64,000 nt of DNA from Escherichia coli (GTDB lineage: Bacteria; Pseudomonadota; Gammaproteobacteria; Enterobacterales; Enterobacteriaceae). Below the pieces are notes generated by a model, which saw only the letters and a program-made list of their open reading frames with translations, had not been told where the DNA came from and made no database searches. A program made the position numbers and the translations under genes. Below, in pieces: positions 1 through 20,938 of the stretch. Where the stretch lies: the NCBI RefSeq assembly GCF_003790525.1, contig NZ_CP033635.1; one strand, written 5' to 3'. Position 1 is the stretch's first letter. Each line of letters opens with the position of its first letter.

Positions 1-216
1 ATGAGCACCGGCCGTAAGCACGTTATGTTATTGTTTCATTAGTAATAATCACTTAAATGTATCGATGAAACAGGTATGACTTAGCGGGAGTGATTGTTTC
101 TGAGTGAACAGAGACCACTTTAGCCTGATAAATGAAAAATGAGCGATTTTTGCAAGTTAGTTTTTCTATAGCCGAGTACGCTCAGCGCCTCGCTTGATTA
201 CAATGAGGTTGCTGCT

Positions 217-1161
217 ATGAGTCCTGATAATATCGGTTCGGCTGTCAATCGCTTCTCAGGTTGGCCATCTAATGATCCTCTAAAAACAGATAACGAATCA
301 ATGACATCACCCGTGGCTGTGCAGGTAATAAAGATGATTGCCGCCATCCTTGACCCATATCGGATAGTCGTTGGAATCGATACACTTTATACAACGCAGC
401 GCGAAACATTTACCTCAGAGAGTCAACAGCTCATTGAATCAGCATTGCAAACACTTCATGTGATAAATTTAAATAACCTGGAAACAAATCTCGATGAGGA
501 CGGTCACTATCTGGCTTTTGGATATAACGTTGACACTCCTGACAGAATAACCGTTTCTGCTTATAATGAAAAAAAGCCTGGCTGCTATGGCCAATGTCTT
601 TTAATACAGGATGACGAAACAGACTTATTTAACCTGATAAAAGTTAAAATTTTTGAAGCCAGGCATAATTATGTCGCTCAATTGATGAGAGATCCGGAAT
701 TTATGTTCAAATTTAGTTATAGCGCTCAACAAAATAGATTAGAACCTCATCTTCTGGTTCCCACTTATTTCCCTCTAAAAACAAACGAACCGGTTACGCA
801 AGAGGATGTACTGTTACTTTATCGTTTCTTTAAAATGGATGGTGATTTTAATATATTAACATCAGATGAATACATGAGTATCATGACACCTCTGATGAAG
901 TGTGAGCGTAGCATCCACGACCACAACAGGTATGTGACGGGCAAAGATACCCTTCTTCTGGACTATCCTCCTTCTGGTAACCAGATATATTTCCATATTT
1001 TTCCTGACGAATCAGCAACACTAGTCCTTTATTTTTCAAACAATGACATTGAATGTTTCGTCTTTGAAAGAGATATTCCGAGCCAGTATCGCTTTTTCAA
1101 AATGTTTACCAATCTGGCACTGGTTATTGATCAGTTAACTGATGCCAATCAAATACTTTAA
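217..1161 (+). CDS. hypothetical protein, 314 aa, low-GC, no recognisable family
   Basis: ORF with AGG-type RBS about 9 nt upstream of the ATG. N-terminus is Ser/Thr/Asn/Pro-rich with no hydrophobic signal peptide. Internal repeated motif YRFFKM appears twice. GC clearly below the core genes in the window. Confidence 0.55.
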   Translation: MSPDNIGSAVNRFSGWPSNDPLKTDNESMTSPVAVQVIKMIAAILDPYRIVVGIDTLYTTQRETFTSESQQLIESALQTLHVINLNNLETNLDEDGHYLAFGYNVDTPDRITVSAYNEKKPGCYGQCLLIQDDETDLFNLIKVKIFEARHNYVAQLMRDPEFMFKFSYSAQQNRLEPHLLVPTYFPLKTNEPVTQEDVLLLYRFFKMDGDFNILTSDEYMSIMTPLMKCERSIHDHNRYVTGKDTLLLDYPPSGNQIYFHIFPDESATLVLYFSNNDIECFVFERDIPSQYRFFKMFTNLALVIDQLTDANQIL

Positions 1162-1241
1162 TTTTTATATATTCCCTGTGGCAAATATTGCTAAACAATG
1201 CCTGGGGATTAATTTTTATTACTCACGGAAAGATTTAAATA

Positions 1242-1664
1242 ATGATCCCATCTCAAATCTCTTTCAACACCCTTCCTGTCAATGCAACATACGCTTCAGA
1301 GACAACAGTTGACACACAAAAATTCTCTGACATCCTCTACTCAGCGGGGTGTTCCCTAAAGGATCTGGCTTATCTGAGCAGATGTCTGGCATCAATACAT
1401 CCGACTATCGCCAAAAACATTTATGAAACAGAAAATCTCAGCGATCAAAAATTACTACATATTGATTGCCGTAGTACAAATGAAATCAAGATAAATATCT
1501 TTTTTGGTCAACAACGAGAAGGATTAATTGAAATTAATTCTGACACTGTCATTTTTTCGATATTGTCTTCATTAATTGACTCCGCCATTTCTAAATTTCA
1601 ACACCAAATCCCCGTTAACGGTTCAGTTAATCGTGAACTATTGTATGAGGATTATACTGATTAA
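1242..1664 (+). CDS. hypothetical small acidic protein, 140 aa, partner of upstream ORF
   Basis: ORF starts 80 bp downstream of the 314-aa ORF on the same strand. By my count about 20 Asp/Glu against about 10 Lys/Arg. No transmembrane segment or signal peptide seen. Confidence 0.45.
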   Translation: MIPSQISFNTLPVNATYASETTVDTQKFSDILYSAGCSLKDLAYLSRCLASIHPTIAKNIYETENLSDQKLLHIDCRSTNEIKINIFFGQQREGLIEINSDTVIFSILSSLIDSAISKFQHQIPVNGSVNRELLYEDYTD

Positions 1665-2210
1665 ATCCACCCAGTCGCGAAAATGGCCTGCGTTATTGCC
1701 AGAGGTAATAAAACCTTTGATTAACGTTACTCATACTGGTAGCACCTTCATGTACCTCTCTTTTTTACGAAAAATCAAAAGAGCTAACTAAGGTCATAAT
1801 TCGCATGAATCATTAACCATTTGTTATTTTCAACATTATTTTTACATTAAGCAGAGATGAATTGCAGTGAAATTCGACTTAAATTTTATGAAATGCATTT
1901 ACTCATGGCTAAACCCATATCACTAAAATGCAAATTAGAAGTAGATCACAAATACCTCAATACACCAAATCAAGTTAATTTTAAAAATTTAACATTCATG
2001 ACATTAGTTGACATAACACACTGAATTAACATGAGAATTTAACAACATACTTTAAACAATCATTTCCCGAAAGACATTTTGAAAATAGATCAATTGCAAC
2101 ATTACGGTCAGATAAAGACACTCCTGTGATATTAAACCTGTGCCGTTATGAACGGCCATAAATACGACGTGTGTAACTTATTTTACTCTCTGTCTTACAA
2201 AGGATTACCC
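1665..2210. promoter_or_regulatory. AT-rich non-coding leader / promoter region upstream of the glutamate mutase operon
   Basis: About 540 bp without a convincing ORF, visibly far more AT-rich than the flanking genes, immediately upstream of the first gene of a six-gene coupled operon. Confidence 0.4.
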
Positions 2211-2660
2211 ATGAAGAAAGCAACACTTGTGATTGGCGTTATTGGCGCGGACTGCCATGCAGTAGGCAATAAAGTTCTGGACCGCGTTTTTAGCAACCAT
2301 GGCTTCAGAGTCATTAATCTGGGCGTAATGGTCAGCCAGGACGAATATATTGATGCGGCCATTGAAACTGGCGCTGACGCGATTGTCGTCTCCTCTATCT
2401 ATGGGCATGGCGATATCGACTGTCTGGGCATGCGCGAACGCTGCATCGAGCGTGGACTGGGGGACATCCTGCTCTATGTGGGCGGTAACCTGGTGGTCGG
2501 AAAACATGACTTCGCTGACGTGGAAACCAAATTCAAAGAGATGGGATTTGATCGCGTCTTTGCCCCAAGTCATGACTTAGAAGATGTTTGTCAGCTGATG
2601 GCCCACGATATCAACCAACGTCATGACGTTGATACTCGTATTCTTGAAGAGGCAATCTGA
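2211..2660 (+). CDS. glutamate mutase S (sigma) subunit, B12-binding component of methylaspartate mutase
   Basis: Translation from [21 protein letters not shown] matches the cobalamin-binding small subunit, including the DxHxxG motif (DCHAVG). Start chosen at the internal ATG preceded by AAGGA; the track ORF starts 21 codons earlier. Confidence 0.85.
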
Positions 2661-4048
2661 TGCAAATCGTCTCTGTCGATATTGGATCGACGTGGACCAA
2701 AGCAGCCCTCTTCGCCCGGGAGGGGGACGCGTTAACGTTGGTTAACCACGTACTGACCCCAACCACCACCCATCATCTGGCGAAGGGGTTTTTCTCCAGC
2801 CTGAACCTGGTGTTAAACGTAGATAATGCCCTCCCCCTGTTTAACAACGGTGAGGTTGCATTGAAGTATTCCTCCTCTGCCAAAGGTGGGCTGGCGGTTG
2901 CCGCAATGGGGTTGGTGCCTTCTATCACCCTGGAAACCGCGAAAGTAACCGCTCACTCTGCGGGGGCTAAAATTGCGCAATATTACTCCTACAAGCTGAA
3001 CCGCCGTGATATCCAGGCACTGGAAGAAACGCAGCCCGATATTCTCTTGTTCACCGGCGGCACCGACGGCGGAGAAGAAAGCTACGGCCTGAATAACGCC
3101 CGTGTGCTGGCAGAATCCAAACTCGACTGCGCCATTATTTATGCCGGAAACCGGGATATTCAGGACGAGGTGCAGGAGATCCTAGGGCATAAAGACCTGA
3201 CCATCGTCGACAACGTTCTGCCCGATCTTGACCATCCGAACCCTTTAGCTGCACGCCAGGCTATCTGCGACATATTCCTTAAACGCATCGTTAAAGGGAA
3301 AGGGCTGGATGTCGTTGTTGATAAAACAGGCGAAGAACCAATGCCGACACCGTGGACAGTCTTTGAACTGGTTAAGGCAATCAGTAATGTCGATCACAGC
3401 TGGAAAGAGTTCATGCTGATCGACATGGGTGGCGCAACCACCGATGTCTATTCCGCCTGTGCCAACACGCTCTCGCCCGACACCGTTTTACACGGCGTAC
3501 CGGAACCCTTCGTGAAACGGACGGTGGAAGGCGATCTGGGAATGCGCGTCTCGGCAATGGTGGTTGGTGAAAGTGCGAAAGAGTTAGTCAATGTGAATTT
3601 TGCTCAGCAACCCGCACAGCTGGACGCTTTTTATCATTACCTCCGTCATCTAGTCGCTCATCCCGACTACTTACCCGCGAATGCAGAAGAAAAATATTTC
3701 GATACCGTCCTGGCCGGACTGTGTGTGGGTTATGCCACCGAAAGACATGCGGGCACCAAAAAAGAGGTCTGCACCTGTGTCGGCAATGTCGATTTACAGA
3801 TGGGACGTGACCTGACAACCGTGCGTAAAGTCGTCGGAACCGGCGGATGGCTCTCGCGTGCCAGTCAGTTCGATATGCATCACTGGTTGAAATACCGCGA
3901 GTTAAACGACGACGGTAAACGCATTCTCTTACCGACCGAATTTGAATATTACCGCGATTCCCGGGGGCTATTACCACTGCTGGCAAACGTCGCCAGAGTC
4001 GATCCGCTGGCCGCCGCGCGCACCAGTATTCAATGCTTAACCCTATAA
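2660..4048 (+). CDS. glutamate mutase L component (MutL/GlmL-type accessory protein)
   Basis: 462-aa ORF whose ATG overlaps the upstream stop (TGATG), sitting between the S and E subunit genes as in clostridial glutamate mutase operons. Confidence 0.75.
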   Translation: MQIVSVDIGSTWTKAALFAREGDALTLVNHVLTPTTTHHLAKGFFSSLNLVLNVDNALPLFNNGEVALKYSSSAKGGLAVAAMGLVPSITLETAKVTAHSAGAKIAQYYSYKLNRRDIQALEETQPDILLFTGGTDGGEESYGLNNARVLAESKLDCAIIYAGNRDIQDEVQEILGHKDLTIVDNVLPDLDHPNPLAARQAICDIFLKRIVKGKGLDVVVDKTGEEPMPTPWTVFELVKAISNVDHSWKEFMLIDMGGATTDVYSACANTLSPDTVLHGVPEPFVKRTVEGDLGMRVSAMVVGESAKELVNVNFAQQPAQLDAFYHYLRHLVAHPDYLPANAEEKYFDTVLAGLCVGYATERHAGTKKEVCTCVGNVDLQMGRDLTTVRKVVGTGGWLSRASQFDMHHWLKYRELNDDGKRILLPTEFEYYRDSRGLLPLLANVARVDPLAAARTSIQCLTL

Positions 4049-4066
4049 CAATTAAGGCTGCAATCA

Positions 4067-5512
4067 ATGGAACTTCGAAATAAGAAATTAACCCATGACG
4101 AATTCATGACCGAGCGGCAACAGGTACTGAAAACCTGGGAAACCGGCAAGGATGTTGAAAACTTTGAAGATGGCGTTAAATACCAACAAACCATTCCTGA
4201 GCATAAACGCTTCTCTCTTGCCCTGCTGAAAGCAGACAAGGAAGGTAAAACTCTTAGCCAACCGCGCGCAGGCGTGGCGCTGATGGACGAACACATCGAA
4301 CTACTGAAAACACTACAAGAAGAATGCGATCTGCTGCCGAGCACCATCGACGCATATACCCGTCTGAATCGGTACGAAGAAGCGGCTGTAGGGATTAAAA
4401 AATCCATCGAAGCCGGAACCTCTAAACTGAACGGTTTACCGGTCGTTAACCACGGCGTCGCAGCTTGCCGTCGCCTCACCGAAACTTTGCAAAAACCGCT
4501 ACAGATCCGCCACGGCACGCCAGATGCGCGTCTGCTGGCTGAAATCTCGATGGCCAGCGGCTTTACCAGTTATGAAGGCGGCGGCATTTCCTACAATATT
4601 CCGTATGCCAAGCGCGTAACGCTGGAAAAATCGATCCGCGACTGGCAGTACTGCGACCGTTTAATGGGGATGTATGAAGAACACGGGATCCGCATCAACC
4701 GCGAACCGTTTGGCCCACTAACGGGTACCCTGATCCCGCCGTTTATCTCGCACTCTATCGCGATAATCGAAGGCTTGCTGGCGCTGGAACAGGGTGTGAA
4801 ATCTATCACCGTTGGTTATGGACAGGTCGGCAGCCTGACGCAGGATGTTGCGGCGATCCAGTCTCTGCGTGAACTTGCACACGAATATTTTCAGAGCTAT
4901 GGCTATACCGACTATGAATTAAGTACCGTGTTTCACCAGTGGATGGGCGGCTTTCCGGAAGACGAATCGAAAGCGTTCGCTATTATCTCCTGGGGCGCAG
5001 CCGTCGCGGGGATGTCTGGTGCCACCAAAGTCATCACCAAAAGTCCGCACGAAGCCTGGGGTATCCCGACTGCCGCTGCCAACATTCAGGGGCTGAAAGC
5101 CTCCCGCCAGATGCTCAACATGGTCAACGAGCAGAAATTCCCGCCGTGCCCTGCGGTTGAACTGGAAATTGAACTGATTAAGAGCGAGGTTCGCGCGGTA
5201 CTGAATAAAGTGTTCGAACTGGGTAATGGTGATATTGCGCGCGGTACGGTGCTGGCATTTGAAGCGGGCGTACTGGATGTGCCGTTTGCGCCAGCCGCCT
5301 GCAACGCGGGCAAAATTCTTCCGGTCCGTGACAACACCGGCGCGATACGCGTACTGGAAGCCGGAGCCGTTCCATTGCCAAAAGATATTCTCGACCTCCA
5401 CCACGATTACGTTGCGGAACGCGCACGCTTTGAAGGACGCCAACCGACATTCCAGATGGTTGTAGATGACATCAATGCTGTATCCCACAGTAAATTAATA
5501 GGAAGACCATAA
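4067..5512 (+). CDS. glutamate mutase E (epsilon) catalytic subunit
   Basis: 481-aa translation (MELRNKKLTHDEF ... FQMVVDDINAVSHSKLIGRP) colinear with clostridial GlmE/MutE across its full length. Confidence 0.9.
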   Translation: MELRNKKLTHDEFMTERQQVLKTWETGKDVENFEDGVKYQQTIPEHKRFSLALLKADKEGKTLSQPRAGVALMDEHIELLKTLQEECDLLPSTIDAYTRLNRYEEAAVGIKKSIEAGTSKLNGLPVVNHGVAACRRLTETLQKPLQIRHGTPDARLLAEISMASGFTSYEGGGISYNIPYAKRVTLEKSIRDWQYCDRLMGMYEEHGIRINREPFGPLTGTLIPPFISHSIAIIEGLLALEQGVKSITVGYGQVGSLTQDVAAIQSLRELAHEYFQSYGYTDYELSTVFHQWMGGFPEDESKAFAIISWGAAVAGMSGATKVITKSPHEAWGIPTAAANIQGLKASRQMLNMVNEQKFPPCPAVELEIELIKSEVRAVLNKVFELGNGDIARGTVLAFEAGVLDVPFAPAACNAGKILPVRDNTGAIRVLEAGAVPLPKDILDLHHDYVAERARFEGRQPTFQMVVDDINAVSHSKLIGRP

Positions 5513-6753
5513 TGAAAATAAAACAGGCTCTGTTCACCGCTGGCTACTCCTCATTCTATTTCGATGACCAGCAGGCGATAAAAAACGGAGCGGGTCATGA
5601 CGGCTTTTTTTATACCGGGGAGCCGGTAACACAGGGGTTTAACGCCGTTCGTCAGGCCGGGGAGTGCGTATCGGTACAGTTGATTCTGGAAAACGGCGCG
5701 GTCGCCGTAGGTGACTGTGCTGCCGTACAGTATTCCGGGGCAGGTGGTCGCGATCCACTGTTCCTCGCTGAGCACTTTATTCCGTTCCTCAACGACCATA
5801 TCAAGCCATTACTGGTAGGCCGCGATGTGGATGCTTTCCTGCCGAATGCCCGTTTCTTCGACAAATTGCGTATTGACGGCAACTTGCTGCATACCGCCGT
5901 GCGCTACGGATTATCACAGGCGCTGCTTGATGCTACCGCGCTGGCAACCGGCCGTCTGAAAACTGAAGTGGTCTGTGATGAATGGCAGTTGCCACGCGTG
6001 GCGGAATCCATTCCATTATTTGGTCAGAGCGGGGACGATCGATATATCGCCGTCGATAAGATGATCCTTAAGGGCATCGACGTGCTGCCCCATGCACTGA
6101 TTAATAACGTCGAAGAGAAACTGGGCTTTAAAGGTGAAAAACTGCGCGAATATGTCCGCTGGCTGTCGGATCGTATTCTGAGCAAGCGCACCAGCGCACG
6201 CTACCACCCTACCCTGCACATCGATGTATACGGCACTATCGGTCTGATCTTCGATATGGATCCGCTTCGCTGTGCGCAATACATCGCCAGCCTGGAAAAA
6301 GAAGCGCAAGGCCTGCCGCTCTACATTGAAGGGCCGGTCGATGCCGGTAACAAGCCCGATCAAATTCGCCTGCTGACCGCGATTACCAAAGAGCTGACGC
6401 GCCTCGGTTCCGGCGTGAAAATTGTGGCCGATGAATGGTGTAACACCTACCAGGATATTGTTGATTTCACTGATGCCGCCAGTTGCCACATGGTGCAAAT
6501 CAAAACCCCGGATCTGGGCAGTATTCACAACATCGTCGATGCAGTTCTTTATTGCAACAGCCACAGCATGGAAGCGTACCAGGGCGGCACCTGCAATGAA
6601 ACTGATGTCAGTGCCCGCACCTGTGTCCACGTCGCCCTTGCCGCTCGCCCCATGCGTATGCTGGTAAAACCAGGGATGGGCTTTGACGAAGGCCTCGATA
6701 TCGTCTTCAACGAAATGAATCGTACTATCGCGCTGTTGCAGGCTAAGGATTAA
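5512..6753 (+). CDS. 3-methylaspartate ammonia-lyase
   Basis: 413-aa translation colinear with clostridial methylaspartase (conserved blocks AVQYSGAGGRDPLF, HALINNVEEKLG, HMVQIKTPDLG, CNETD). Start overlaps the glmE stop. Confidence 0.92.
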   Translation: MKIKQALFTAGYSSFYFDDQQAIKNGAGHDGFFYTGEPVTQGFNAVRQAGECVSVQLILENGAVAVGDCAAVQYSGAGGRDPLFLAEHFIPFLNDHIKPLLVGRDVDAFLPNARFFDKLRIDGNLLHTAVRYGLSQALLDATALATGRLKTEVVCDEWQLPRVAESIPLFGQSGDDRYIAVDKMILKGIDVLPHALINNVEEKLGFKGEKLREYVRWLSDRILSKRTSARYHPTLHIDVYGTIGLIFDMDPLRCAQYIASLEKEAQGLPLYIEGPVDAGNKPDQIRLLTAITKELTRLGSGVKIVADEWCNTYQDIVDFTDAASCHMVQIKTPDLGSIHNIVDAVLYCNSHSMEAYQGGTCNETDVSARTCVHVALAARPMRMLVKPGMGFDEGLDIVFNEMNRTIALLQAKD

Positions 6754-6756
6754 CAA

Positions 6757-8127
6757 ATGGCTCGTTCTTTTAAAGTCTTATCGCCAACGGCAATCCTCGG
6801 GTATGGATTCCCGGAAGAGAGCTTCCGCAAAGCGATGGCAGAATCGCCCGATCTGATCGCCGTTGATGCAGGCTCTTCCGATCCTGGCCCCCACTACCTC
6901 GGGGCGGGCAAACCGTTTACCGATCGCGCAGGGGTCAAGCGTGATTTGCGCTATATGATCACCGCAGGCGTGCAAAATAATATACCGGTGGTGATCGGAA
7001 CGGCCGGCGGTTCTGGTGCCGCTCCACACCTGGAGTGGTGCCGAGAAATAATTCATGAGATTGCCCGGGAAGAGCAACTCGCGTTCTCGATGGCGCTGAT
7101 CCCGGCAGACGTTGACAAAGCCATCGTCCACCAGGCGCTGGATAACGGCAAAATCACGGCGCTGGATTTTGTCCCGCCGTTAACCCACGACGCGATTGAC
7201 GAAAGTACGTATATCGTCGCGCAAATGGGCATCGAACCCTTCCAGCGGGCGCTGAAAGAAGGCGCGCAAGTGGTGCTGGGCGGGCGCGCTTACGACCCGG
7301 CCTGCTTTGCTGCGCTCCCGATCATGCAAGGCTTTGATGAAGGTCTGGCGCTGCATTGTGGGAAAATCCTTGAATGCGCGGCAATCGCCGCAACGCCCGG
7401 CTCAGGCTCTGACTGTGCGATGGGCATCATTGATGACAACGGCTTTACGCTGAAGACATTTAATCCGAAGCGTAAATTTACCGAAACGTCAGCGGCTGCA
7501 CACACACTGTATGAGAAATCCGATCCCTACTTCCTGCCTGGACCTGGCGGCGTGTTGAACCTGAAAGGCTGCACATTTAAAGCGGTCAATGACGGCGAAG
7601 TGTACGTCAGCGGTTCTAAGCATGAAGAAACGCCGTATGCCCTGAAACTGGAAGGTGCGCGACGGGTGGGCTTCCGCTGTCTGACCATCGCAGGAACGCG
7701 CGACCCGATCATGATCGCCGGGATCGATAAAATCATCGATGAAGTCAAAACCAGCGTTTCACGTAACCTGTCGCTCGACGATGACAGCATTCGCATCAAT
7801 TTCCACCTGTACGGCAAAAACGGGGTGATGGGCGACCATGAACCGATGCAAACTGCCGGGCATGAGCTGGGGATTGTCCTTGATGTAGTTGCACCGACCC
7901 AGGAAATTGCCAATAGCGTTTGCTCGCTGGTGCGCTCTACCATGCTGCACTACGGCTATGAAAACCGCATCGCTACCGCAGGCAATCTGGCGTTCCCGTT
8001 CTCCCCTTCTGATATCCAGGGCGGGCCGGTATACGAATTTTCCATATATCACCTGATTGAAGCCAACGACGCTCTGCGTTTTGATTTCCATATTGAACAG
8101 GTGACGCCAGAAGGAGTTCAGGCATGA
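6757..8127 (+). CDS. uncharacterised 456-aa protein, possibly DUF1446/AtuA-like
   Basis: ORF begins 4 nt after the methylaspartase stop in the same operon. Family assignment is from memory and tentative; no catalytic motif recognised. Confidence 0.6.
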   Translation: MARSFKVLSPTAILGYGFPEESFRKAMAESPDLIAVDAGSSDPGPHYLGAGKPFTDRAGVKRDLRYMITAGVQNNIPVVIGTAGGSGAAPHLEWCREIIHEIAREEQLAFSMALIPADVDKAIVHQALDNGKITALDFVPPLTHDAIDESTYIVAQMGIEPFQRALKEGAQVVLGGRAYDPACFAALPIMQGFDEGLALHCGKILECAAIAATPGSGSDCAMGIIDDNGFTLKTFNPKRKFTETSAAAHTLYEKSDPYFLPGPGGVLNLKGCTFKAVNDGEVYVSGSKHEETPYALKLEGARRVGFRCLTIAGTRDPIMIAGIDKIIDEVKTSVSRNLSLDDDSIRINFHLYGKNGVMGDHEPMQTAGHELGIVLDVVAPTQEIANSVCSLVRSTMLHYGYENRIATAGNLAFPFSPSDIQGGPVYEFSIYHLIEANDALRFDFHIEQVTPEGVQA

Positions 8128-8441
8128 AACAGTCAATTGTCTCACTGGCGCAAGTCATTCGTTCGAAAAATGCCGGACCTTACGAACTGGTTTTAGATAT
8201 TTTATTTAAAACGAAAGAAAACTATGAGCGAGTTAAATCATCAGGGCAATTAACCCCAGAACTGATTGCGCGCTTATATCATGTTGAACCTGACTTTATT
8301 CACCGTATTGTCTGGTTTGATCCTTCTAACGCAGTAAAAATCGTCATGCCACGAGATATTATCTCCGGGAATGTAGGTGACAATGATGTCTATGGTGCAC
8401 AGCAACATGCACCTTTATTAAATATGAGTTTCGATTTGTAA
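8124..8441 (+). CDS. uncharacterised 105-aa protein, possibly DUF4387-like partner of the upstream ORF
   Basis: Start overlaps the upstream stop by 4 nt (ATGA). Family assignment tentative. Confidence 0.55.
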   Translation: MKQSIVSLAQVIRSKNAGPYELVLDILFKTKENYERVKSSGQLTPELIARLYHVEPDFIHRIVWFDPSNAVKIVMPRDIISGNVGDNDVYGAQQHAPLLNMSFDL

Positions 8442-8601
8442 AAATCCGAATACTTTTAGCCAACTGACATCCCGTCACTTATTGCAGTTCAACACTTCAG
8501 CTATTTGTAAGGTTGTAATAGCAGGTAGATGCCTGAATCTCTATTCAGGCTTCTACTTCTCCTGATTCTGATTTATCGCCGTGCACCTGATGGAGGAAAA
8601 A

Positions 8602-9882
8602 ATGAAGAAAATAAGTTTAACCACGATGATTCTTTTGGCGCTGGTACTTGGAATGATTATCGGCGTAGTGCTCAATAACACTGCTTCACCGGAAACCGCA
8701 AAACTCTATGCGCAAGAAATATCGATATTCACGACGATTTTCTTACGACTGATAAAAATGATTATCGCTCCGTTAGTGGTCTCTACCCTGGTGGTAGGTA
8801 TAGCTAAAATGGGAGATGCCAAAGCCCTTGGTCGTATTTTTTCTAAAACACTCTTTTTATTTATTTGCGCCTCATTGCTGTCAATCGCCTTAGGCTTGAT
8901 AACAGTAAATTTCTTCATGCCAGGCACAGGAATTAATTTTGTTGCACACGGAGCCGAAACCACCGGAGTGGTCGCGTCAGAACCCTTTACGCTAAAAGTA
9001 TTTATTTCGCATGCTTTCCCCACCAGCATTGTCGATGCCATGGCGCACAATGAAATTTTGCAAATCGTGGTGTTCTCAATTTTCCTCGGCTGTAGCCTGA
9101 CGGCGATTGGTGAGAAAGGCAGCGCCATCGTTCACGCCTTAGATTCGCTGGCACATGCCATGTTAAAGCTCACTGGCTACGTCATGCTCTTCGCTCCCCT
9201 GACCGTATTCGCCGCTATTTCAGCATTGATTGCTGAACGAGGACTGGCAGTTATGGTGAGCGCCGGGATCTTTATGGGTGAATTTTATTTCACCATGTTG
9301 TTACTTTGGGTGCTGCTTATCGGTCTGGCCATCGTTTATGTCGGCCCCTGCATCAGACGCCTGACCCGTGCCCTTTCGGAACCCGCCCTGCTGGCATTTA
9401 CCACATCCAGTTCTGAAGCGGCTTTTCCGGGAACGCTTGAAAAACTGGAGCAATTTGGCGTTTCCCCCAAAATTGCCAGCTTTGTCTTACCCATTGGCTA
9501 CTCATTTAATCTCGTTGGATCAATGGCCTACTGCTCCTTCGCCACAGTTTTCATCGCCCAGGCCTGCAATATCCATTTATCCATCGGTGAGCAAATCACC
9601 ATGCTGTTGATCCTGATGTTGACCTCGAAAGGAATGGCTGGCGTACCACGCGCCTCAATGGTGGTTATCGCCGCCACGCTCAACCAGTTCAATATTCCGG
9701 AAGCGGGGCTGATCTTGCTGATGGGCGTTGATCCGTTCCTTGATATGGGGCGTTCCGCGACAAACGTCATGAGCAACGCAATGGGCGCTGCGATGGTGAG
9801 TCGGTGGGAAGGCGAACATTTCGGCGAGGGCTGTCGGGGTAAAGCATTAAAACCCAATGAATCGAACGTTGCTCTGCCCTGA
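8602..9882 (+). CDS. dicarboxylate/amino acid:cation symporter (GltP/DctA family)
   Basis: Multi-pass hydrophobic protein with GltP-like blocks. Start set at the ATG (MKKISL) preceded by GGAGG; the track ORF begins at an upstream GTG. Confidence 0.8.
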   Translation: MKKISLTTMILLALVLGMIIGVVLNNTASPETAKLYAQEISIFTTIFLRLIKMIIAPLVVSTLVVGIAKMGDAKALGRIFSKTLFLFICASLLSIALGLITVNFFMPGTGINFVAHGAETTGVVASEPFTLKVFISHAFPTSIVDAMAHNEILQIVVFSIFLGCSLTAIGEKGSAIVHALDSLAHAMLKLTGYVMLFAPLTVFAAISALIAERGLAVMVSAGIFMGEFYFTMLLLWVLLIGLAIVYVGPCIRRLTRALSEPALLAFTTSSSEAAFPGTLEKLEQFGVSPKIASFVLPIGYSFNLVGSMAYCSFATVFIAQACNIHLSIGEQITMLLILMLTSKGMAGVPRASMVVIAATLNQFNIPEAGLILLMGVDPFLDMGRSATNVMSNAMGAAMVSRWEGEHFGEGCRGKALKPNESNVALP

Positions 9883-9989
9883 GGGGGATCTTAAGCAATC
9901 AGAAGCCAATGACTACGCATTTTTATAAGCCGGATCATGAAGTTAGACGGCAATTAAGTAAAACTAACGTTTAAGGTGAAAAGTGAAAT

Positions 9990-11642
9990 ATGTCCAAACC
10001 ATTTATCTGGCAAGAACCGTTTCTACAAAATAAAGACGGTACAGAATATACATTAATTAGCGATCAACATATTACAGTAACGGAATTAGACGGCGAAGAA
10101 GTGATAAAAATCGCTCCTGAAGCATTAACGCTGCTTGCCCGGCAGGCATTTTATGAAGCCTCTTTTTTCTTACGTTCCGCTCATTTGCAACAGGTCGCCA
10201 GCATTCTTAACGATCCGCACGCCAGTAGTAATGATAAATACGTTGCGTTGCAGTTATTACGTAATGCTGAAGTCTCAGCAAAAGGGGTATTACCCAACTG
10301 TCAGGATACCGGCACCGCAACTATTGTTGCCAGTAAAGGGCAACAGATATGGACCGGAGGTAACGACGCTGAAGCCTTAAGCAAAGGCATTTACACCACT
10401 TTTCAGGAAAATAATCTGCGCTTTTCACAAAATGCGCCACTGGATATGTTTACCGAAGTCAATACGCAAACCAATCTCCCGGCGCAGATTGATATCAGCG
10501 CCGTCGCTGGTGATGAGTACCATTTTCTCTGTATTAATAAAGGGGGCGGCTCTGCCAATAAAGCCGCGCTTTATCAGGAAACCAAATCCCTATTGCAACC
10601 AGAAAAACTGACCGCATTTTTAATCGAAAAAATGAAATCGCTGGGCACCGCTGCCTGCCCGCCTTACCACATCGCCTTTGTCGTCGGAGGGCTTTCAGCC
10701 GATCAAACCTTAAAAGTTGCCAAGCTGGCCTCAACGAAATATTACGACAATTTGCCCACCAGCGGAAACGAGCAAGGACAAGCATTCCGTGATATTGAGC
10801 TGGAAAAAGTATTGCTCGAGGCCAGTCAGCAATTTGGTATTGGTGCGCAATTTGGGGGTAAATATTTCGCTCATGATATTCGCGTCATTCGTCTGCCGCG
10901 TCACGGTGGCTCTTGCCCGATAGCTATGGCGCTCTCCTGTTCTGCGGATCGCAATATCAAAGCAAAAATTAACAAGCACGGTATCTGGCTGGAAAAACTC
11001 GAACACAATCCGGGGCAATATATTCCAGCCTCACTGCGGGAAGAAAATCACGCGCAACATGTACAGCTGGATCTAAACCGTCCGTTGCGTGACGTGATGC
11101 AGGATCTCGCCAGATTACCGGTAGGCACCCGCGTGTCGTTAAGTGGTCCCATCGTAGTGGCGCGCGATATCGCCCACGCCAAAATAAAAGCGCGGCTGGA
11201 TAGCGGCGAACCGATGCCGGATTACCTGAAGCATCATATTGTCTATTACGCTGGCCCGGCGAAAACACCGGAGAACATGGCCTGCGGTTCACTGGGTCCA
11301 ACCACGGGCGGTCGAATGGACGGTTATGTCGATACCTTCCAGGCGGCTGGCGGCAGTCTGGTGATGTTATCGAAAGGTAACCGCAGCCAGCAGGTCACCG
11401 ATGCCTGTCACAAACATGGCGGCTTCAATCTGGGGAGTATTGGCGGTGCAGCTGCGTTACTGGCGCAAGAATATGTCAAAAGTCTGCGTTGCCTGGAATA
11501 CCCGGAGCTGGGTATGGAAGCGGTGTGGATGATGGAAGTGGAAAATTTACCCGCATTCATCCTGGTAGATGATAAAGGCAATAATTTCTTTAGTCAGTTT
11601 GAGCAGCAACACCGCTGCGCCAGTTGCCCTGCGGGACATTAA
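9990..11642 (+). CDS. class I (Fe-S) fumarate hydratase paralog, FumA/FumB-like; candidate mesaconase
   Basis: 550-aa translation colinear with E. coli FumA (e.g. [35 protein letters not shown]). The mesaconase role is inferred from operon context only. Confidence 0.85.
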
Positions 11643-11651
11643 GGAAAATGA

Positions 11652-12254
11652 ATGGAAGCGCGAATTTCAACTGAACGGCATGTGCAGCGCCAGCAGAAAT
11701 TGAAGGAACAGGTCGATACGCGCGTCGCGGCGGCGATAGAGAAAAAAGGGATTTTGATTGTTTTCACCGGCAATGGCAAAGGGAAATCCACTGCCGCGTT
11801 TGGTACTGTGACGCGCGCGGTGGGTCATGGCAAAACGGTGGGGGTTGCGCAGTACATCAAGGGGCAATGGGACAACGGCGAATACAACCTTCTCCAGCCG
11901 CTGGGGGTTGAGTTTCATATTATGGGAACCGGTTTTACCTGGGAGACACAGAACCGGCAAGCGGATATCGACGCGGCGAAAGAGGTCTGGTCGGAAAGCA
12001 AACGGATGCTGGCTGACAAGCGTTACGACTTAGTGGTGCTTGATGAGCTGACCTATATGCTGGCTTACCATTATCTGGATACCGAAGAAGTGATCGCTTC
12101 TCTGCAAAACCGCCCGGCACAACAAAGTGTCATTGTCACCGGACGCGGTTGCCACAGTCAGATATTAAAAATGGCGGATACGGTCAGCGAAATCCGCCCC
12201 GTCAAACATGCTTTTGATAACGGCATTCAGGCCCAGCCGGGTATCGACTGGTAA
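11652..12254 (+). CDS. corrinoid adenosyltransferase paralog (BtuR/CobA family)
   Basis: 200-aa translation closely colinear with E. coli BtuR, including the P-loop-like block IVFTGNGKGKSTAAFG. Confidence 0.85.
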   Translation: MEARISTERHVQRQQKLKEQVDTRVAAAIEKKGILIVFTGNGKGKSTAAFGTVTRAVGHGKTVGVAQYIKGQWDNGEYNLLQPLGVEFHIMGTGFTWETQNRQADIDAAKEVWSESKRMLADKRYDLVVLDELTYMLAYHYLDTEEVIASLQNRPAQQSVIVTGRGCHSQILKMADTVSEIRPVKHAFDNGIQAQPGIDW

Positions 12255-12287: not shown

Positions 12288-13193
12288 TTACATCTCCTGC
12301 GGTACGACCGATTTCGCCAGCAACCATTCACGAAATTGCTGCAAGTGCGGTGAGTCAGACTTCTCTTCCTGCCACGTCATAATAAAACGATTACCGGTAC
12401 GAATAGGCACATCACAGGGAATCACCATATCGCCACTATCCAAATCATGTTGAATAGCGAACCGTGGTAACAGCGCCACGCCGAGATTAGAGCGCACGGC
12501 GGCAATCAGCATTGAAAGCAAATCGAAACGTGGTCCGTTATTGACCAGCGGACTGCTAACGCCAGATAAAGCAAACCACTCTTCCCAGCCAGTAATACGG
12601 GTGCTTTGATGCAGAAGTGGTAACTCAGTAAGCAGTTCTGCCACTGACAGTTTTTGATCGGACATTGCAAGCAAACTGCCGCTGCATACCGGCAAAATCT
12701 CCTCATCAAAGAGATATTCTACTTCCGCCCAGGGCGCGCAAAAATTTTCGCGCATAATGACAGCATCGTACTCCCGATTAAGAAAATCGCCGTTATTAGC
12801 TAAAGAATGAATATTAACAATAATATCGGGATGTAACTTTGTGAATTCATGTAAATTTGGGATTAACCAGTGGGTACTAAACGTAGGATTCACGGCAAGT
12901 TCAATAACCTGAACCGTAGGCTGCCAGGTCATAATGGTATTGGTATCGCGTTCCAGCTTATTTAATGTTTCTTTTACTATCCCCAGGTAATACTTCCCTG
13001 CATCATTAAGAAAAATGCGTTTTTTAGAGTGTGAAAATAACGGAGTATGTAAAAATTCCTCCAGCGCACTTACTTGTCTGAATACTGCACTTTGGGTTAA
13101 CGCTAACTCCTCTGCCGCTCTGGTATAACTTTCATGACGTGCGACGACCTCAAAAGTCACCAGCAGTTCCGTTTTAGGTATTTTTCCTCGCAT
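12288..13193 (-). CDS. LysR-family transcriptional regulator
   Basis: 301-aa ORF with an N-terminal helix-turn-helix (TRAAEELALTQSAVFRQVSALEE) and a LysR substrate-binding domain. Convergent with the upstream operon. Confidence 0.85.
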   Translation of the reverse strand: MRGKIPKTELLVTFEVVARHESYTRAAEELALTQSAVFRQVSALEEFLHTPLFSHSKKRIFLNDAGKYYLGIVKETLNKLERDTNTIMTWQPTVQVIELAVNPTFSTHWLIPNLHEFTKLHPDIIVNIHSLANNGDFLNREYDAVIMRENFCAPWAEVEYLFDEEILPVCSGSLLAMSDQKLSVAELLTELPLLHQSTRITGWEEWFALSGVSSPLVNNGPRFDLLSMLIAAVRSNLGVALLPRFAIQHDLDSGDMVIPCDVPIRTGNRFIMTWQEEKSDSPHLQQFREWLLAKSVVPQEM

Positions 13194-13770
13194 AATGCCT
13201 TCCCTTAAAAATAGTTGAAACTATCAAAAAACCATTACTTATTGCTAAGTAATGGCAACCAAAGCAGCAATCAATATTTTATAAAAATCATGTTCGATAT
13301 TTATAACCTGGTAAGCCTGGCGTGACAATTGTCTTAATCAGATAATAATAATCCGAAAAGCACAGCACCTTTCGAATTATCAGGAATTACATTAAGTGAA
13401 AATTATTAAATTGATATCATTTATCATATCTGTGGATATTATGATAAACAATCAACATAGATTTTATTTTTGATTTATAGCATATCCCTCTAAGAATTTT
13501 TGCGATGCTTCAATATCCGGGGTAAAGACCCGATCCTGACTGACAAATGGCACGACTTGACGATAAGCGGTGAACATCGCTTTTGTTGATTTACTTAACG
13601 CTACGGTCAAACGCTGGGAAGCCAGTGCATCAGGTAACGATTCGAAATTCGCCGTCGTTCTTATTCGTGGCTTGCGGTCGGTCGCGGCAATCCACAGTGG
13701 CTGTGGTCATGCAGTCAAGCCTGCAGTCAGATTCCGACCGTGGTTAACGTTTAAGGCATAAAAAAGGCCA

Positions 13771-13858
13771 TCATATGATGGCCAACCATGTCGAAACCGA
13801 CAGCCCTTCGCCATTCCTGTAGAGGGAAGCGGCGAGGGCTATTTCTTATTACAGATAT
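13771..13858 (-). ncRNA. sdhX: sucD 3'-UTR small RNA (SdhX/RybD-type) ending in an intrinsic terminator
   Basis: Region immediately after the sucD stop on the minus strand ends in the perfect palindrome GGCCATCATATGATGGCC followed by a T-run. Identity as SdhX rests on position and recollection; 5' end approximate. Confidence 0.45.
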
Positions 13859-20021: not shown

Positions 20022-20221
20022 CGTGATCCCTTAAGCATCTTTTTTATGCTTACTTCGCCGTGGATACTACCACGCACAATGATGTGCGTGCCGGGGTTCA
20101 CTTGCGAGCTCTTGTCTACGTAGTGGCTCGCGAAGGAACCTTTAAAAACTGTCTTAGTGTCAGGGGCAGTTTTTAAAGATTTCCTGAATAGCCGGGGGAT
20201 TTCCCCGGCATCAACATTTAA

Positions 20222-20938
20222 TTACGCATTACGTTGCAACAACATCGACTTGATATGGCCGATGGCGCGCGTCGGGTTCAGCCCCTTCGGACATACACTG
20301 ACGCAGTTCATGATGCTGTGACAGCGGAATACACTGAATGCATCGCTCAAACCGTCGAGGCGGCTGTCAGTCTCGGTATCACGGCTATCGATCAGGAAAC
20401 GATATGCCGCTAACAAGCCTGCCGGGCCGATAAACTTATCGGGATTCCACCAGAAAGACGGACAAGAGGTTGAACAACATGCGCAGAGAATACATTCATA
20501 CAACCCGTCGAGTTTTTCGCGCTGCTCTGGCATCTGTAAATGCTCGCGAGCTGGCGGATTTTGTCCATTATTCAACAGGTAAGGCTTAATTTTCTCATAT
20601 TGCGCATAGAATTGTCCCATGTCTACCACCAAATCGCGGATCACCGGTAAACCTGGCAGCGGGCGAATCACAATCTTCTTGCCCGGCTGGTTGAGTGCCG
20701 AAATCGGGGTAATACAGGCCAGACCATTCTTACCGTTCATGTTCAGACCGTCGGAACCGCACACACCTTCGCGGCAGGAGCGGCGGAACGACAGGCTGGG
20801 ATCTTTCTCTTTCAGCTGGATAAGCGCATCCAGCAGCATCATGTCGCGACCTTCTTCCGCTTCCAGGGTGTAATCCTGCATACGCGGAGCATCATCAACA
20901 TCCGGGTTATAGCGATAAATTGAAAACTCGAGTCTCAT
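20222..20938 (-). CDS. sdhB: succinate dehydrogenase iron-sulfur subunit
   Basis: 238-aa translation recognised as SdhB, with Cys clusters. Confidence 0.97.
   Translation of the reverse strand: MRLEFSIYRYNPDVDDAPRMQDYTLEAEEGRDMMLLDALIQLKEKDPSLSFRRSCREGVCGSDGLNMNGKNGLACITPISALNQPGKKIVIRPLPGLPVIRDLVVDMGQFYAQYEKIKPYLLNNGQNPPAREHLQMPEQREKLDGLYECILCACCSTSCPSFWWNPDKFIGPAGLLAAYRFLIDSRDTETDSRLDGLSDAFSVFRCHSIMNCVSVCPKGLNPTRAIGHIKSMLLQRNA

Follow-up and report, generated by a model that had tools for sequence, protein, structure and literature searches.

Gene context and make-up of the glmS upstream gap

The analysed window, a 64-kb stretch of E. coli DNA, contains an island with a glutamate-fermentation (methylaspartate) cluster. 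The island was carried by 1138 of 5426 complete E. coli genomes (21%, about one-fifth), O157:H7 included, and the cluster is also found in many opportunistic Enterobacterales. The operon (2211..12254, + strand) was assigned from the RefSeq annotation of the identical SMS-3-5 sequence, NCBIfam and PMC4682846. Its genes are glmS, glmL, glmE, methylaspartate ammonia-lyase, AtuA-like and DUF4387 genes, followed by further genes for a dicarboxylate/amino-acid symporter and a class I fumarase (FumD, a mesaconase), and cobO. The glmS product matched the GlmS equivalog NF002612 with E=2.8e-76. The start codon of glmS (ATG at 2211) is preceded by the Shine-Dalgarno (SD) sequence AAGGA at 2200–2204 (AGGA at 2201–2204), the whole element lying at 2200..2213 on the + strand. 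AGAGGAT-N6-ATG was kept in all genera compared, and the N-terminus MKK(A/S)... aligned from this ATG. A LysR-type transcriptional regulator (LTTR) gene was annotated at the far end of the island (12288..13193, − strand). The cluster occupies the same chromosomal site, between cydA and sucD, in several genera, which indicates that it is old and not recently acquired. No laboratory condition that expresses it has yet been found.

Between the orphan gene orf140 (stop at 1664) and glmS (start at 2211) lies a gap of 546 bp (1665–2210). In length it ranks second among the window's 44 annotated intergenic gaps, whose median is 103.5 bp, and its GC content is 0.326 (32.6%) compared to 0.512 (51.2%) for the window; only 0.5% of 546-bp windows were equally AT-rich. 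The sequence-only reading that drew attention to this region had described a long AT-rich non-coding gap before a glutamate mutase operon, and its coordinates were exact. The most AT-rich core is at 1805–2055 (GC 0.259). AT-richness extends past the gap, as the two upstream orphan genes are also AT-rich (GC of 1–2210, 0.364) and both island edges rank among the most AT-rich spots of the window. The operon body has an ordinary GC content of 50–58% and is AT-rich at its edges only. Among 5426 complete E. coli genomes, each of the 1135 that carried the gap had a single copy, and therefore it is not a repeat element. A repeat search of the gap returned short chance repeats only, and a perfect 6-3-6 palindrome was below the reporting length.

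The gap was compared across 8 E. coli lineages and about 14 genera. From these alignments, it is a composite of an insertion flank (1665–1804), a fast-evolving part (1805–2055) and a part under purifying selection (2056–2210). The left part (1665..1804, no strand assigned; GC 0.40) forms the 3' flank of an AT-rich insertion specific to E. coli, which covers approximately 58–1804 of the window and carries orf314 and orf140. In a blastn comparison with the cydA-glmS gap of E. whittamii, homology ended at 57 and restarted at 1805, and the insertion had no counterpart in E. whittamii or the other genera. Both orf314 and orf140 were confined to E. coli-like loci, and neither gave a significant match in Pfam, NCBIfam, PADLOC or PDB sequence searches. 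The middle part (1805..2055, no strand assigned; GC 0.26) is an AT-rich spacer that lies upstream of the promoter. Conservation of this spacer is limited to the genus Escherichia, with blocks at 1806–1846 and 1925–2003. Its + strand shows an excess of C over G at 1894–2023 (C/G ratios of 2.7–3.2).

Among the 8 E. coli lineages, 80 of 391 columns were variable in the distal gap (1665–2055), compared to 20 of 149 third codon positions of glmS. By this measure, the distal gap is evolving about as fast as synonymous sites and no slower. The proximal part (2056–2210) had only 3 variable sites out of 155, which differed from both the glmS third positions (Fisher p=1.3e-4) and the distal gap (p=1.5e-9). 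Outside Escherichia, a blastn assay of 80 loci matched the gap only at about 348–471 of its length (window 2012–2135), and no cross-genus similarity was detected upstream of about 2012. The tract upstream of glmS was long, non-coding and AT-rich in every Enterobacterales locus with enough upstream sequence. ORF scanning gave lengths of 297–1431 bp and GC contents of 0.24–0.37 in several different genomic contexts. Two loci had tracts of 196 and 312 bp, and there only an AT-rich ORF intervened. Independent gene calls placed the tract at 518–1215 bp in five genera.

The AT-rich tract as a possible H-NS target

An extended AT-rich tract in accessory DNA, which is the composition of an H-NS target, is present at this locus. 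On this basis, the spacer at 1805–2055 could serve as a platform for H-NS-type silencing. Silencing of the AT-rich tract by H-NS is a plausible proposal and would fit both the base composition and the reported silence of the operon. The published high-affinity H-NS motif TCGATAAATT was not enriched in the gap; two matches with no more than 2 mismatches were found, a count that 21% of windows reach. Non-coding DNA beside acquired genes could also be AT-rich as a passive property, which speaks against silencing. The glm genes were absent from the supplementary lists consulted for EHEC H-NS ChIP studies. A literature search that covered the Z088x and ECs076x locus tags and any link between H-NS and methylaspartate or between LysR and methylaspartate ammonia-lyase returned nothing on regulation.

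According to PMC4682846, every attempt to find conditions for expression of the cluster in O157:H7 was unsuccessful, and methylaspartate ammonia-lyase activity could not be detected. Across an EHEC RNA-seq compendium (PMC9263587), one M9 data set had Z0885–Z0899 jointly upregulated by 2–4 log2; the genes behind the Z numbers were deduced from their order between sucD (Z0883) and cydA (Z0900). This rise covered the whole island, including the upstream orphan genes, and lay in a component with many other cryptic genes. The rise may be a real de-silencing or a batch effect.

The glm tract resembles H-NS-silenced operons such as bgl, LEE/Ler and LeuO-controlled loci in its low GC content (26–33% vs 51%) and in belonging to an accessory cluster. 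As in those operons that have a counter-silencer, the glm operon is silent in the laboratory and a dedicated regulator is encoded in the island. Unlike H-NS-silenced acquired operons, the glm operon has a body of 50–58% GC and the cluster is old; base composition is the one feature here that points to H-NS binding.

Alternatively, the distal AT-rich tract might have no function and be a neutral spacer, its composition being a product of origin and mutation bias. The operon would then be silent in the laboratory simply because the signal of its activator is missing. The variation of the distal part at or above the synonymous rate, its unalignable sequence between genera, the lack of motif enrichment, and the arrival of 1665–1804 with an unrelated insertion all agree with such a spacer. 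However, a long AT-rich tract (GC 0.24–0.37) has been kept before glmS in every genus, also where the genome has 55–57% GC, and across four or more genomic contexts, and the AT-rich spots at both island edges are also against it. We consider a neutral spacer possible but rather doubtful.

Predicted core promoter, conserved putative operator block and candidate regulator

Sequence comparison showed that only the last ~150 bp of the gap is constrained, and this part contains a predicted weak sigma-70 promoter and a conserved block with the core TGAAAATAGATCAATTGC. The predicted core promoter (2094..2122, + strand) consists of a −35 element TTGCAA at 2094–2099, a 17-bp spacer and a weak −10 element GACACT at 2117–2122, which score 4/6 and 3/6 against the consensus, respectively. 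When 22 sequences from about 14 genera were aligned without gaps, T2094, T2095, G2096, A2118 (−11) and T2122 (−7) were invariant, and the 17-bp spacer varied freely in sequence with a fixed length. The invariant columns of this alignment were thus the operator core, the TTG of the −35, −11A and −7T, at fixed spacing. Hexamers 16–18 bp apart with −11A and −7T, as looked for in a sigma-70 promoter, were therefore found. A consensus promoter scan reported 3 promoter-like sites against 5.5 expected and missed the conserved weak promoter because its −10 matches at 3 of 6 positions only.

From the position of this promoter, the transcription start would be near A2129, giving a 5' UTR of ~82 nt that would carry a normal SD and, towards its 5' end, a single small hairpin. 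The hairpin is a stem-loop, GCCGUU-AUG-AACGGC, at 2142..2156 on the + strand (+14 to +28), and it appeared in both the MFE and centroid folds. The leader of more than 500 nt that the sequence-only reading had proposed does not agree with this start, which puts about 460 of the 546 bp on the upstream side of the promoter. Its suggestion of complex regulation was reasonable, in view of the deeply conserved putative operator and promoter in the last ~150 bp.

The conserved block is ~35 bp long, lies directly upstream of the −35 and overlaps it, and spans about −67 to −33. The upstream half, TTTCCCGAAAGACATTTT (2062..2079, + strand; about −67 to −50 from the predicted start), has the consensus TTTTnnGAAAGAyATTyT. 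It was conserved at 85% or more in 31 Enterobacteriaceae sequences, and A2071 and T2077 were invariant in the 22 sequences from about 14 genera. This half may be a second activator contact site or a UP-like element. The putative operator TTGAAAATAGATCAATTGC (2079..2097, + strand) contains the dyad TTGA-N7-TCAA at 2079–2093, centred at 2086 (about −43). It has a T-N11-A format (T2080...A2092), includes GATC at 2088–2091 and overlaps the −35.

The 18-mer core at 2080–2097 was identical in all Enterobacteriaceae loci except one (L012, 1 mismatch). The Enterobacteriaceae loci came from Escherichia, Klebsiella, Citrobacter, Salmonella arizonae/diarizonae, Enterobacter, Lelliottia, Pluralibacter, Buttiauxella and Pseudescherichia. 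Yersinia, Budvicia and two other loci had 2–3 mismatches; the site could still be recognised in Yersinia and Budvicia, and its right half (ATCAATTG) was kept in Morganella and Hafnia. In five Yersinia loci a similar site, TTGCAGAkAGAACAATTGC, is likewise fused to TTGCTT-16-AATAAT before a fumD placed apart from the operon, directly downstream of the LTTR gene. Given this similar site, the operator looks pathway-specific. No convincing operator-like sites turned up in the rest of the E. coli island or in the clusters of Klebsiella, Pseudescherichia and Lelliottia. A TTGA-N7-TCAT at 13441–13455, upstream of the LTTR gene, was rejected as within chance expectation. By eye and against published consensus sequences, none of sigma-54, sigma-32, Fur, ArgR, Cra, Lrp, IHF and a UP element fitted the invariant block as a whole; IHF (ATCAA...TT) and a UP-like T/A tract fitted parts of it.

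The sequence TGATATTAA (2127..2135, + strand) could be an alternative extended −10 (TGn + TATTAA) or else a conserved initial transcribed sequence. As a promoter without a −35 in the same conserved core, it would start transcription near 2142, at the base of the hairpin; this would move the dyad to −56, and the conserved GACACTCC, then spanning −25 to −18, would be an activation site for an LTTR tetramer. This geometry is nearer to the classical LTTR layout, a hairpin exactly at the 5' end would stabilise the mRNA, and TATTAA is conserved in most Enterobacteriaceae, with the TG added in Escherichia only. However, the −7 position of TATTAA is an A, although a T is almost universal there. The motif has decayed to TATTCC/CATTCT in the Pseudescherichia group, and Yersinia and Morganella lack it; in all of these, by contrast, TTG-17-nAnnnT shows no variation. 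A start near 2142 is accordingly judged unlikely, and the −35/−10 pair at 2094–2122 is preferred.

LTTR boxes have the known format of a 4-N7-4 dyad with T-N11-A. Promoters that depend on LTTR activators include benA/BenM and catB/CatM, with ATAC-N7-GTAT, and metE/MetR, with TGAA-N5-TTCA. Classical LTTR promoters have a recognition site near −65 and an activation site near −35. The TTGA-N7-TCAA sequence is an interrupted dyad that contains T-N11-A, as in an LTTR box. Its centre, at −43 for a start at 2129 or −56 for a start at 2142, is nearer to the promoter than the classical −65. The glm promoter is like the LTTR catabolic promoters of benA/BenM, catB/CatM and metE/MetR in its dyad format, its weak core promoter, its conserved putative binding block from about −67 to the −35 element, the LTTR gene in the same catabolic cluster, and the second similar site at another pathway promoter (Yersinia fumD). 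It is unlike them in the position of the dyad and in its regulator gene, which is 11 kb away at the other island end and not divergent from the promoter; no adjacent or divergent LTTR gene was found.

The operator-binding protein is most likely the LysR-type regulator of the cluster, judging from site format and gene content. This protein belongs to the GcvA/DsdC-like LTTR subfamily, although its scores do not reach the curated cut-offs set for named subfamilies. An LTTR gene was found within the cluster in five genera, namely Escherichia, Klebsiella, Pseudescherichia, Lelliottia and Yersinia (also PMC4682846, Fig 5 legend). Against this assignment, Morganella and Hafnia had no LTTR gene in the 10 kb that follow the ammonia-lyase gene or in the roughly 5 kb that precede glmS, although the right half of the site is kept in both.

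Sites for CRP and FNR share a TGA-N6-TCA core (TTGAT-N4-ATCAA or TGTGA-N6-TCACA), and class II sites are centred at −41.5. The invariant block might thus be a class II site for a regulator of this family, with anaerobic induction by FNR in place of a pathway-specific LTTR. The methylaspartate pathway is anaerobic, the promoter-proximal half-site ATCAA (2089–2093) matches the FNR half-site perfectly, and the centre at about −42/−43 is a class II position. However, the dyad is TGA-N7-TCA and not TGA-N6-TCA, and on inspection the left half at the canonical CRP/FNR spacing matched only 2 of 5 positions in E. coli and 1 of 5 in Yersinia. Moreover, a site so invariant that is also present at the Yersinia fumD promoter beside an LTTR gene looks pathway-specific. 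A CRP/FNR site is therefore quite improbable, and the LTTR of the cluster is retained as the candidate.

Search for leader RNA elements and the proposed control region

Covariance scanning with Rfam, which the sequence-only reading had proposed, found no riboswitch or sRNA in the gap. In the window at 1–9000, nothing was obtained at E<=10 except a chance miRNA match at 847–908, and at the gathering threshold no family was detected upstream of glmS in 12 other genera. As a positive control, the same scan detected cobalamin riboswitches (RF00174) elsewhere in loci L027 (464–638) and L038 (268–442), upstream of other genes. Neither a B12 box nor a cobalamin riboswitch was found in the gap by the Rfam E-value scan, consistent with the earlier failure to see a B12-box by eye. 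Cobalamin riboswitch leaders (RF00174; btuB, cob, eut/pdu) share with the glm gap a long non-coding region before genes whose product requires adenosylcobalamin. The gap differs from them in having no covariance match or B12 box and in its predicted UTR of only ~82 nt, which is unconserved in sequence.

No intrinsic terminator was predicted in 1100–2700. The whole gap folded with z=−1.18, and 9 of 100 shuffled sequences folded as well as it did; the predicted UTR gave z=+0.17, and the UTR z-scores scattered around 0 in 31 orthologues. At the position of the E. coli hairpin, most genera had one of a different sequence (mean z −1.59 vs +0.32 for a control segment), but C. amalonaticus and Lelliottia/Enterobacter lacked it. 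Two hairpin variants of the E. coli clade carry an A to G change opposite U, which keeps a wobble pair. This small hairpin was the only recurring element; the covariance match or stable conserved structure of a cis-RNA or sRNA was not found in Rfam and folding assays.

The loop of the hairpin contains the only AUG of the predicted UTR (2148), which is in frame with glmS, has no SD and is absent in E. whittamii. An in-frame glmS extension from 2148 was rejected as a gene, as it was not conserved. Of the 8 E. coli lineages, 7 had an intact 55-aa orf55 (1857–2024), and in the remaining one (L003) it was frameshifted. This ORF was rejected as a leader peptide or gene on account of this frameshift, its mostly non-synonymous changes and indels in E. 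whittamii. The orf71 and two antisense ORFs were also rejected as genes, and the small ORFs were not conserved. The features of attenuation, which are a conserved SD-bearing ORF, alternative hairpins and a terminator, were not found together in the gap. The hidden sRNA, leader peptide or structured RNA that had been suggested for the gap thus found no support, given the empty Rfam scan, the lack of a predicted terminator, shuffled-like folding and unconserved orf55.

A long regulated leader, in which most of the 546 bp would be a 5' UTR hiding a riboswitch, attenuator, leader peptide or sRNA that senses B12, glutamate or oxygen, would suit the long gap, the cofactor-dependent pathway, the co-oriented orf140 and glmS with no predicted terminator between them, and the orf55 intact in most lineages, but it is very improbable given the Rfam results, the folding, the fate of orf55, the distal 390 bp that vary at about the synonymous rate and are unalignable between genera, and a conserved −35/−10 pair only ~90–115 bp from the ATG. 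This reading was already disfavoured by the sequence comparison, and with it falls the more exotic notion of a B12 riboswitch or sRNA hidden in the gap.

We lean towards reading the gap as the upstream control region of the glm operon and not as a long transcribed leader, with an activator-dependent promoter and an AT-rich silencing tract. The weak −10 would make the promoter depend on an activator bound at TTGA-N7-TCAA, most likely the cluster's own LTTR, which would respond to a metabolite of the pathway. Further upstream, ~400 bp of very AT-rich DNA, together with the AT-rich orphan genes beyond, would be the platform on which H-NS-type nucleoid proteins hold the operon silent as long as the activator does not counteract them. 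No riboswitch, sRNA or leader peptide would be involved, and B12 dependence would not be sensed in cis at the glmS upstream site.

More tentatively, an invariant operator/promoter and an obligatory AT-rich silencer tract might form a two-part cis module that travels with the operon through Enterobacterales. Together with the LTTR, it could be a silencer/counter-silencer switch opened by a gut-specific signal only. If true, this switch would explain why no laboratory condition expresses glutamate fermentation in E. coli O157:H7, and the operator would define a previously undescribed regulon of the glm operon and fumD. The likely promoter and the deeply conserved putative operator are concrete experimental targets. 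Apart from these targets and the removal of the RNA reading, the region is a standard regulatory region.

The clostridial mut/glm-mal clusters encode a GntR-type regulator (PMC4682846, Fig 4 legend). The enterobacterial cluster is like these glutamate-fermentation clusters in its enzymes and gene order (glmS/mutS, glmL/mutL, glmE/mutE, mal) and in encoding its own transcription factor. Unlike the GntR-type regulator of the clostridial clusters, the regulator in Enterobacterales is an LTTR.

Location and composition of the glmS upstream gap

The non-coding stretch at 1665-2210 coincides exactly with the 546-bp interval between orf140 and glmS and is single-copy per genome. Only one of the 44 annotated gaps in the window is longer, and their median length is 103.5 bp. 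At a GC content of 0.326 (0.512 for the window as a whole), it is matched in AT-richness by just 0.5% of 546-bp windows. The sequence-only reading of a long, AT-rich region ahead of the glutamate mutase operon was thus confirmed, down to its coordinates. AT-richness extended over both upstream orphan genes (1-2210, GC 0.364), and the most extreme part of the gap was 1805-2055 (GC 0.259).

Over its first 9 kb, the window matched E. coli SMS-3-5 and numerous further E. coli chromosomes with 100% identity, and this segment was carried by 1138 of 5426 complete genomes. In SMS-3-5, it belongs to an accessory island flanked by cydA and sucD. The island contains the hypothetical genes orf314 (217-1161) and orf140 (1242-1664) and glmS (2211-2660; NCBIfam equivalog NF002612, E=2.8e-76), followed in order by glmL, glmE, methylaspartate ammonia-lyase, AtuA-like, DUF4387, dicarboxylate/amino-acid symporter, class I fumarase (FumD, a mesaconase), and cobO genes. 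The last gene encodes a LysR-type regulator (LTTR, 12288-13193) on the strand opposite to the glm genes. The cydA-sucD slot holds the glm island in Escherichia, Klebsiella, Citrobacter, Salmonella arizonae, and Pseudescherichia (compared loci L011, L013, L016, L018, L020, L021, L026, L033, L090, and L092), and the island is therefore an old one with repeated losses, not a recently mobile element. The Lelliottia island was located at a different site, adjoining a phage-type integrase gene (19368-20594 of locus L093).

A GlmS-based scan with one genome per species yielded 80 loci, including 53 from Enterobacterales. Wherever a locus included enough upstream sequence, glmS lay behind a long non-coding tract rich in AT. 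This tract measured 297-1431 bp up to the nearest ORF of 100 aa or more and had a GC content of 0.24-0.37, compared to 0.46-0.59 for the operons; at two loci where only an AT-rich ORF intervened, the distance was 196 and 312 bp. Independent gene calling placed no gene in the 518-1215 bp before glmS in Klebsiella, Pseudescherichia, Lelliottia, Morganella, and Hafnia. The upstream neighbours differed: in Escherichia whittamii, Klebsiella, the Citrobacter freundii group, Salmonella arizonae, and Pseudescherichia, the neighbour was a divergent cydA; Lelliottia, Morganella, and Hafnia had cobalamin-biosynthesis genes there, and Yersinia had other genes. Outside Escherichia, similarity to the gap was limited to 2012-2135.

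Three parts make up this composite gap. The first is the flank of an insertion specific to E. coli, the second an AT-rich spacer that evolves fast, and the third a conserved control region of about 150 bp. Compared to E. whittamii, positions ~58-1804 are an AT-rich 1.75-kb insertion in place of about 320 bp. Therefore, 1665-1804 arrived with the insertion, which leaves 1805-2210 as the sole part of the gap that is ancestral to the genus. Both orf314 and orf140 were confined to E. coli and had no match in Pfam, NCBIfam, PADLOC, and PDB sequence searches. Variable sites between lineages numbered 42/14/45 by codon position in orf314 and 18/16/30 in orf140, and differences at the first and second positions were numerous.

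Variation within the species was analyzed by aligning the window with its counterparts from seven divergent E. coli lineages, which were 88.8-97.1% identical across the gap. Among these eight lineages, 80 of 391 columns varied in the distal part (1665-2055), which was not lower than the third codon positions of glmS (20 of 149). Only three sites varied in the proximal 155 bp (2056-2210), significantly fewer than at synonymous sites (Fisher p=1.3e-4) or in the distal part (p=1.5e-9). Constraint is thus limited to the last ~150 bp. Within the distal part, the 42 bp at 1833-1874 contained one variable site among the eight lineages and were not conserved in E. whittamii.

Predicted promoter and operator of the glm operon

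The control region adds a new case to a well-known type of regulatory sequence. It combines a predicted activator-dependent promoter and a near-invariant putative operator with a short UTR and an ordinary SD. Alignment A1, which was gapless and covered 22 sequences from about 14 genera, contained 17 invariant columns, located upstream (A2071, T2077, T2080, G2081, A2084-A2087, A2089, T2090, C2091, and A2092) and in the promoter (T2094, T2095, G2096, A2118, and T2122). The five promoter columns are the TTG of a -35 hexamer, TTGCAA (2094-2099), together with -11A and -7T in a -10 hexamer, GACACT (2117-2122); the spacer was free to vary in sequence and always 17 bp long. This pattern of invariant positions at a fixed distance is characteristic of a sigma-70 promoter whose -10 is weak. 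Such a promoter would need an activator, and the start predicted near A2129 would give an 82-nt 5′ UTR. Yersinia and Morganella kept the promoter, with a larger distance to the ATG of about 170-200 nt. A rival promoter candidate, TGATATTAA (2127-2135), would start transcription near 2142. It was kept in most Enterobacteriaceae; however, it has A at -7, has degenerated in the Pseudescherichia group, and does not occur in Yersinia.

Upstream of the -35 and overlapping it, the 18-mer TGAAAATAGATCAATTGC (2080-2097) was identical in all Enterobacteriaceae loci except one (L012, 1 mismatch), with 2-3 mismatches in Yersinia, Budvicia, and two other enterobacterial loci. Its right half, ATCAATTG, was also found in Morganella, Hafnia, and Yokenella. 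The invariant block forms a dyad, TTGA-N7-TCAA (2079-2093), that abuts the -35, and conservation of 2062-2079 (consensus TTTTnnGAAAGAyATTyT) takes the block to about -67. A Dam site inside the operator (GATC, 2088-2091) was invariant in all Enterobacteriaceae loci and replaced by AATC/TATC in Yersinia and Budvicia. A CAATTG palindrome (2091-2096) overlaps the -35.

LysR-type regulator boxes have a 4-N7-4 / T-N11-A format, which the glm dyad shares; however, the dyad is nearer to the promoter than the classical LTTR position of -65. We infer that the LTTR of the cluster binds the operator. In five Yersinia loci, fumD stood apart from the glm operon, immediately after the LTTR gene, and had a predicted promoter of its own whose operator closely resembled that of glmS: TTGCAGAkAGAACAATTGC, fused to TTGCTT-16-AATAAT as at glmS (1306-1323 on the minus strand of Yersinia locus L048; equivalents in L049, L050, L053, and L055). 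This fumD site and the LTTR gene in the cluster point to a pathway-specific factor. Escherichia, Klebsiella, Pseudescherichia, Lelliottia, and Yersinia all had an LTTR gene within the cluster (see also PMC4682846, Fig 5 legend). Against this assignment, 11 kb separate the E. coli LTTR gene from the promoter, the gene is not in divergent orientation, and in Morganella and Hafnia no LTTR gene was found over the 10 kb that follow the ammonia-lyase gene or the ~5 kb that precede glmS. The E. coli protein falls in a GcvA/DsdC-like group, scoring under all curated cut-offs. CRP and FNR sites share the core TGA-N6-TCA, from which the glm dyad differs. FNR was nevertheless kept as a minor rival for operator binding because the promoter-proximal half of the dyad equals an FNR half-site and the dyad is centred at -42/-43, a class II position.

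The sole recurrent feature of the predicted 5′ UTR was a small hairpin, GCCGUU-AUG-AACGGC (2142-2156, +14 to +28). Hairpins of differing sequence were found at the same position in Escherichia, Klebsiella, C. sedlakii, Salmonella, several Citrobacter, and Buttiauxella (mean z -1.59 compared to +0.32 for a control segment). The hairpin was deleted in C. amalonaticus and absent from Lelliottia/Enterobacter; two E. coli-clade variants carried A to G opposite U, retaining a wobble pair. It may stabilise the mRNA 5′ end, and it is far too small and variable for a ligand sensor.

Possible silencing of the island

The AT-rich spacer (1805-2055) is probably a platform for nucleoid proteins. Silencing by H-NS, as proposed in the sequence-only reading, is a plausible candidate because of the base composition, the long AT-rich tract conserved in every genus, the island edges, both among the most AT-rich spots of the window, and the reported lack of expression in O157:H7 (PMC4682846). 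The second edge is the sucD-LysR gap (13194-13858, 665 bp), the longest in the window, which has a very AT-rich core (13201-13500, GC 0.275-0.31) and a weak operator look-alike, TTGATTGTTTATCAT (13441-13455), at a frequency within chance expectation. The published H-NS high-affinity motif showed no enrichment in the glmS gap.

In O157:H7, neither expression nor methylaspartate ammonia-lyase activity was found under any tested condition, including anaerobiosis, glutamate, three cobalamins, and several media (PMC4682846). In an EHEC RNA-seq compendium, the EDL933 genes Z0885-Z0899, assigned here to the island because they lie between sucD and cydA (the annotation of Z0900), were all increased by 2-4 log2 in one M9 data set (PMC9263587). 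This increase, in twelve M9 samples of TUV93-0 compared to the reference, included the upstream orphans (PMC9263587 Data Sheets 2 and 3), and the genes load on a component with other cryptic genes (yihPQV, afuB, and Z0459-Z0462; PMC9263587). It could be collective de-silencing or a batch artefact, and therefore it carries no weight in the silencing case. The control region provides defined targets for learning how a cryptic glutamate-fermentation operon gets switched on.

Search for RNA elements and leader peptides

The sequence-only reading had further proposed a leader that could hide a small RNA or leader peptide. A permissive Rfam scan of both strands of 1-9000 returned only a chance miRNA match within orf314, and nothing was detected 5′ of glmS when 12 related loci from 12 genera were scanned at the gathering threshold, so that no RNA family was placed in the glmS leader. 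No intrinsic terminator was predicted in 1100-2700, and neither the whole gap (z=-1.18) nor the predicted 5′ UTR (z=+0.17) folded better than shuffled sequence. A 55-aa ORF (1857-2024) was frameshifted in one E. coli lineage, differed in the others mostly by amino-acid changes, and was disrupted by indels in E. whittamii. No SD precedes the AUG at 2148, which was not kept outside E. coli. Riboswitch, sRNA, and leader peptide were therefore rejected, and the leader interpretation of the gap did not hold.

In SMS-3-5 (L001) and FRIK2455 O157:H7 (L002), RefSeq locus tags jump one number exactly at the gap (RS03725 and RS04325 are missing), and newer annotations show no jump; a small ORF was probably annotated there earlier and withdrawn later. 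The plus strand showed marked C>G skew and A-richness at 1894-2023 (C/G 2.7-3.2 in 78-nt windows). Speculatively, RNA read through from orf140 would be unstructured and rut-like there, which would suit Rho-dependent termination.

The gathering-threshold scan did detect cobalamin riboswitches in Lelliottia locus L027 (464-638) and Buttiauxella locus L038 (268-442), with 104 and 100 bits, and thus it works on such material. They are ~4.4-4.7 kb upstream of glmS on the opposite strand and have no control over it. In Lelliottia, Morganella, and Hafnia, the cobalamin-biosynthesis genes adjoining the glm cluster encode CbiA, CobD, and TP_methylase; thus, B12 supply and use are physically linked in those genera.
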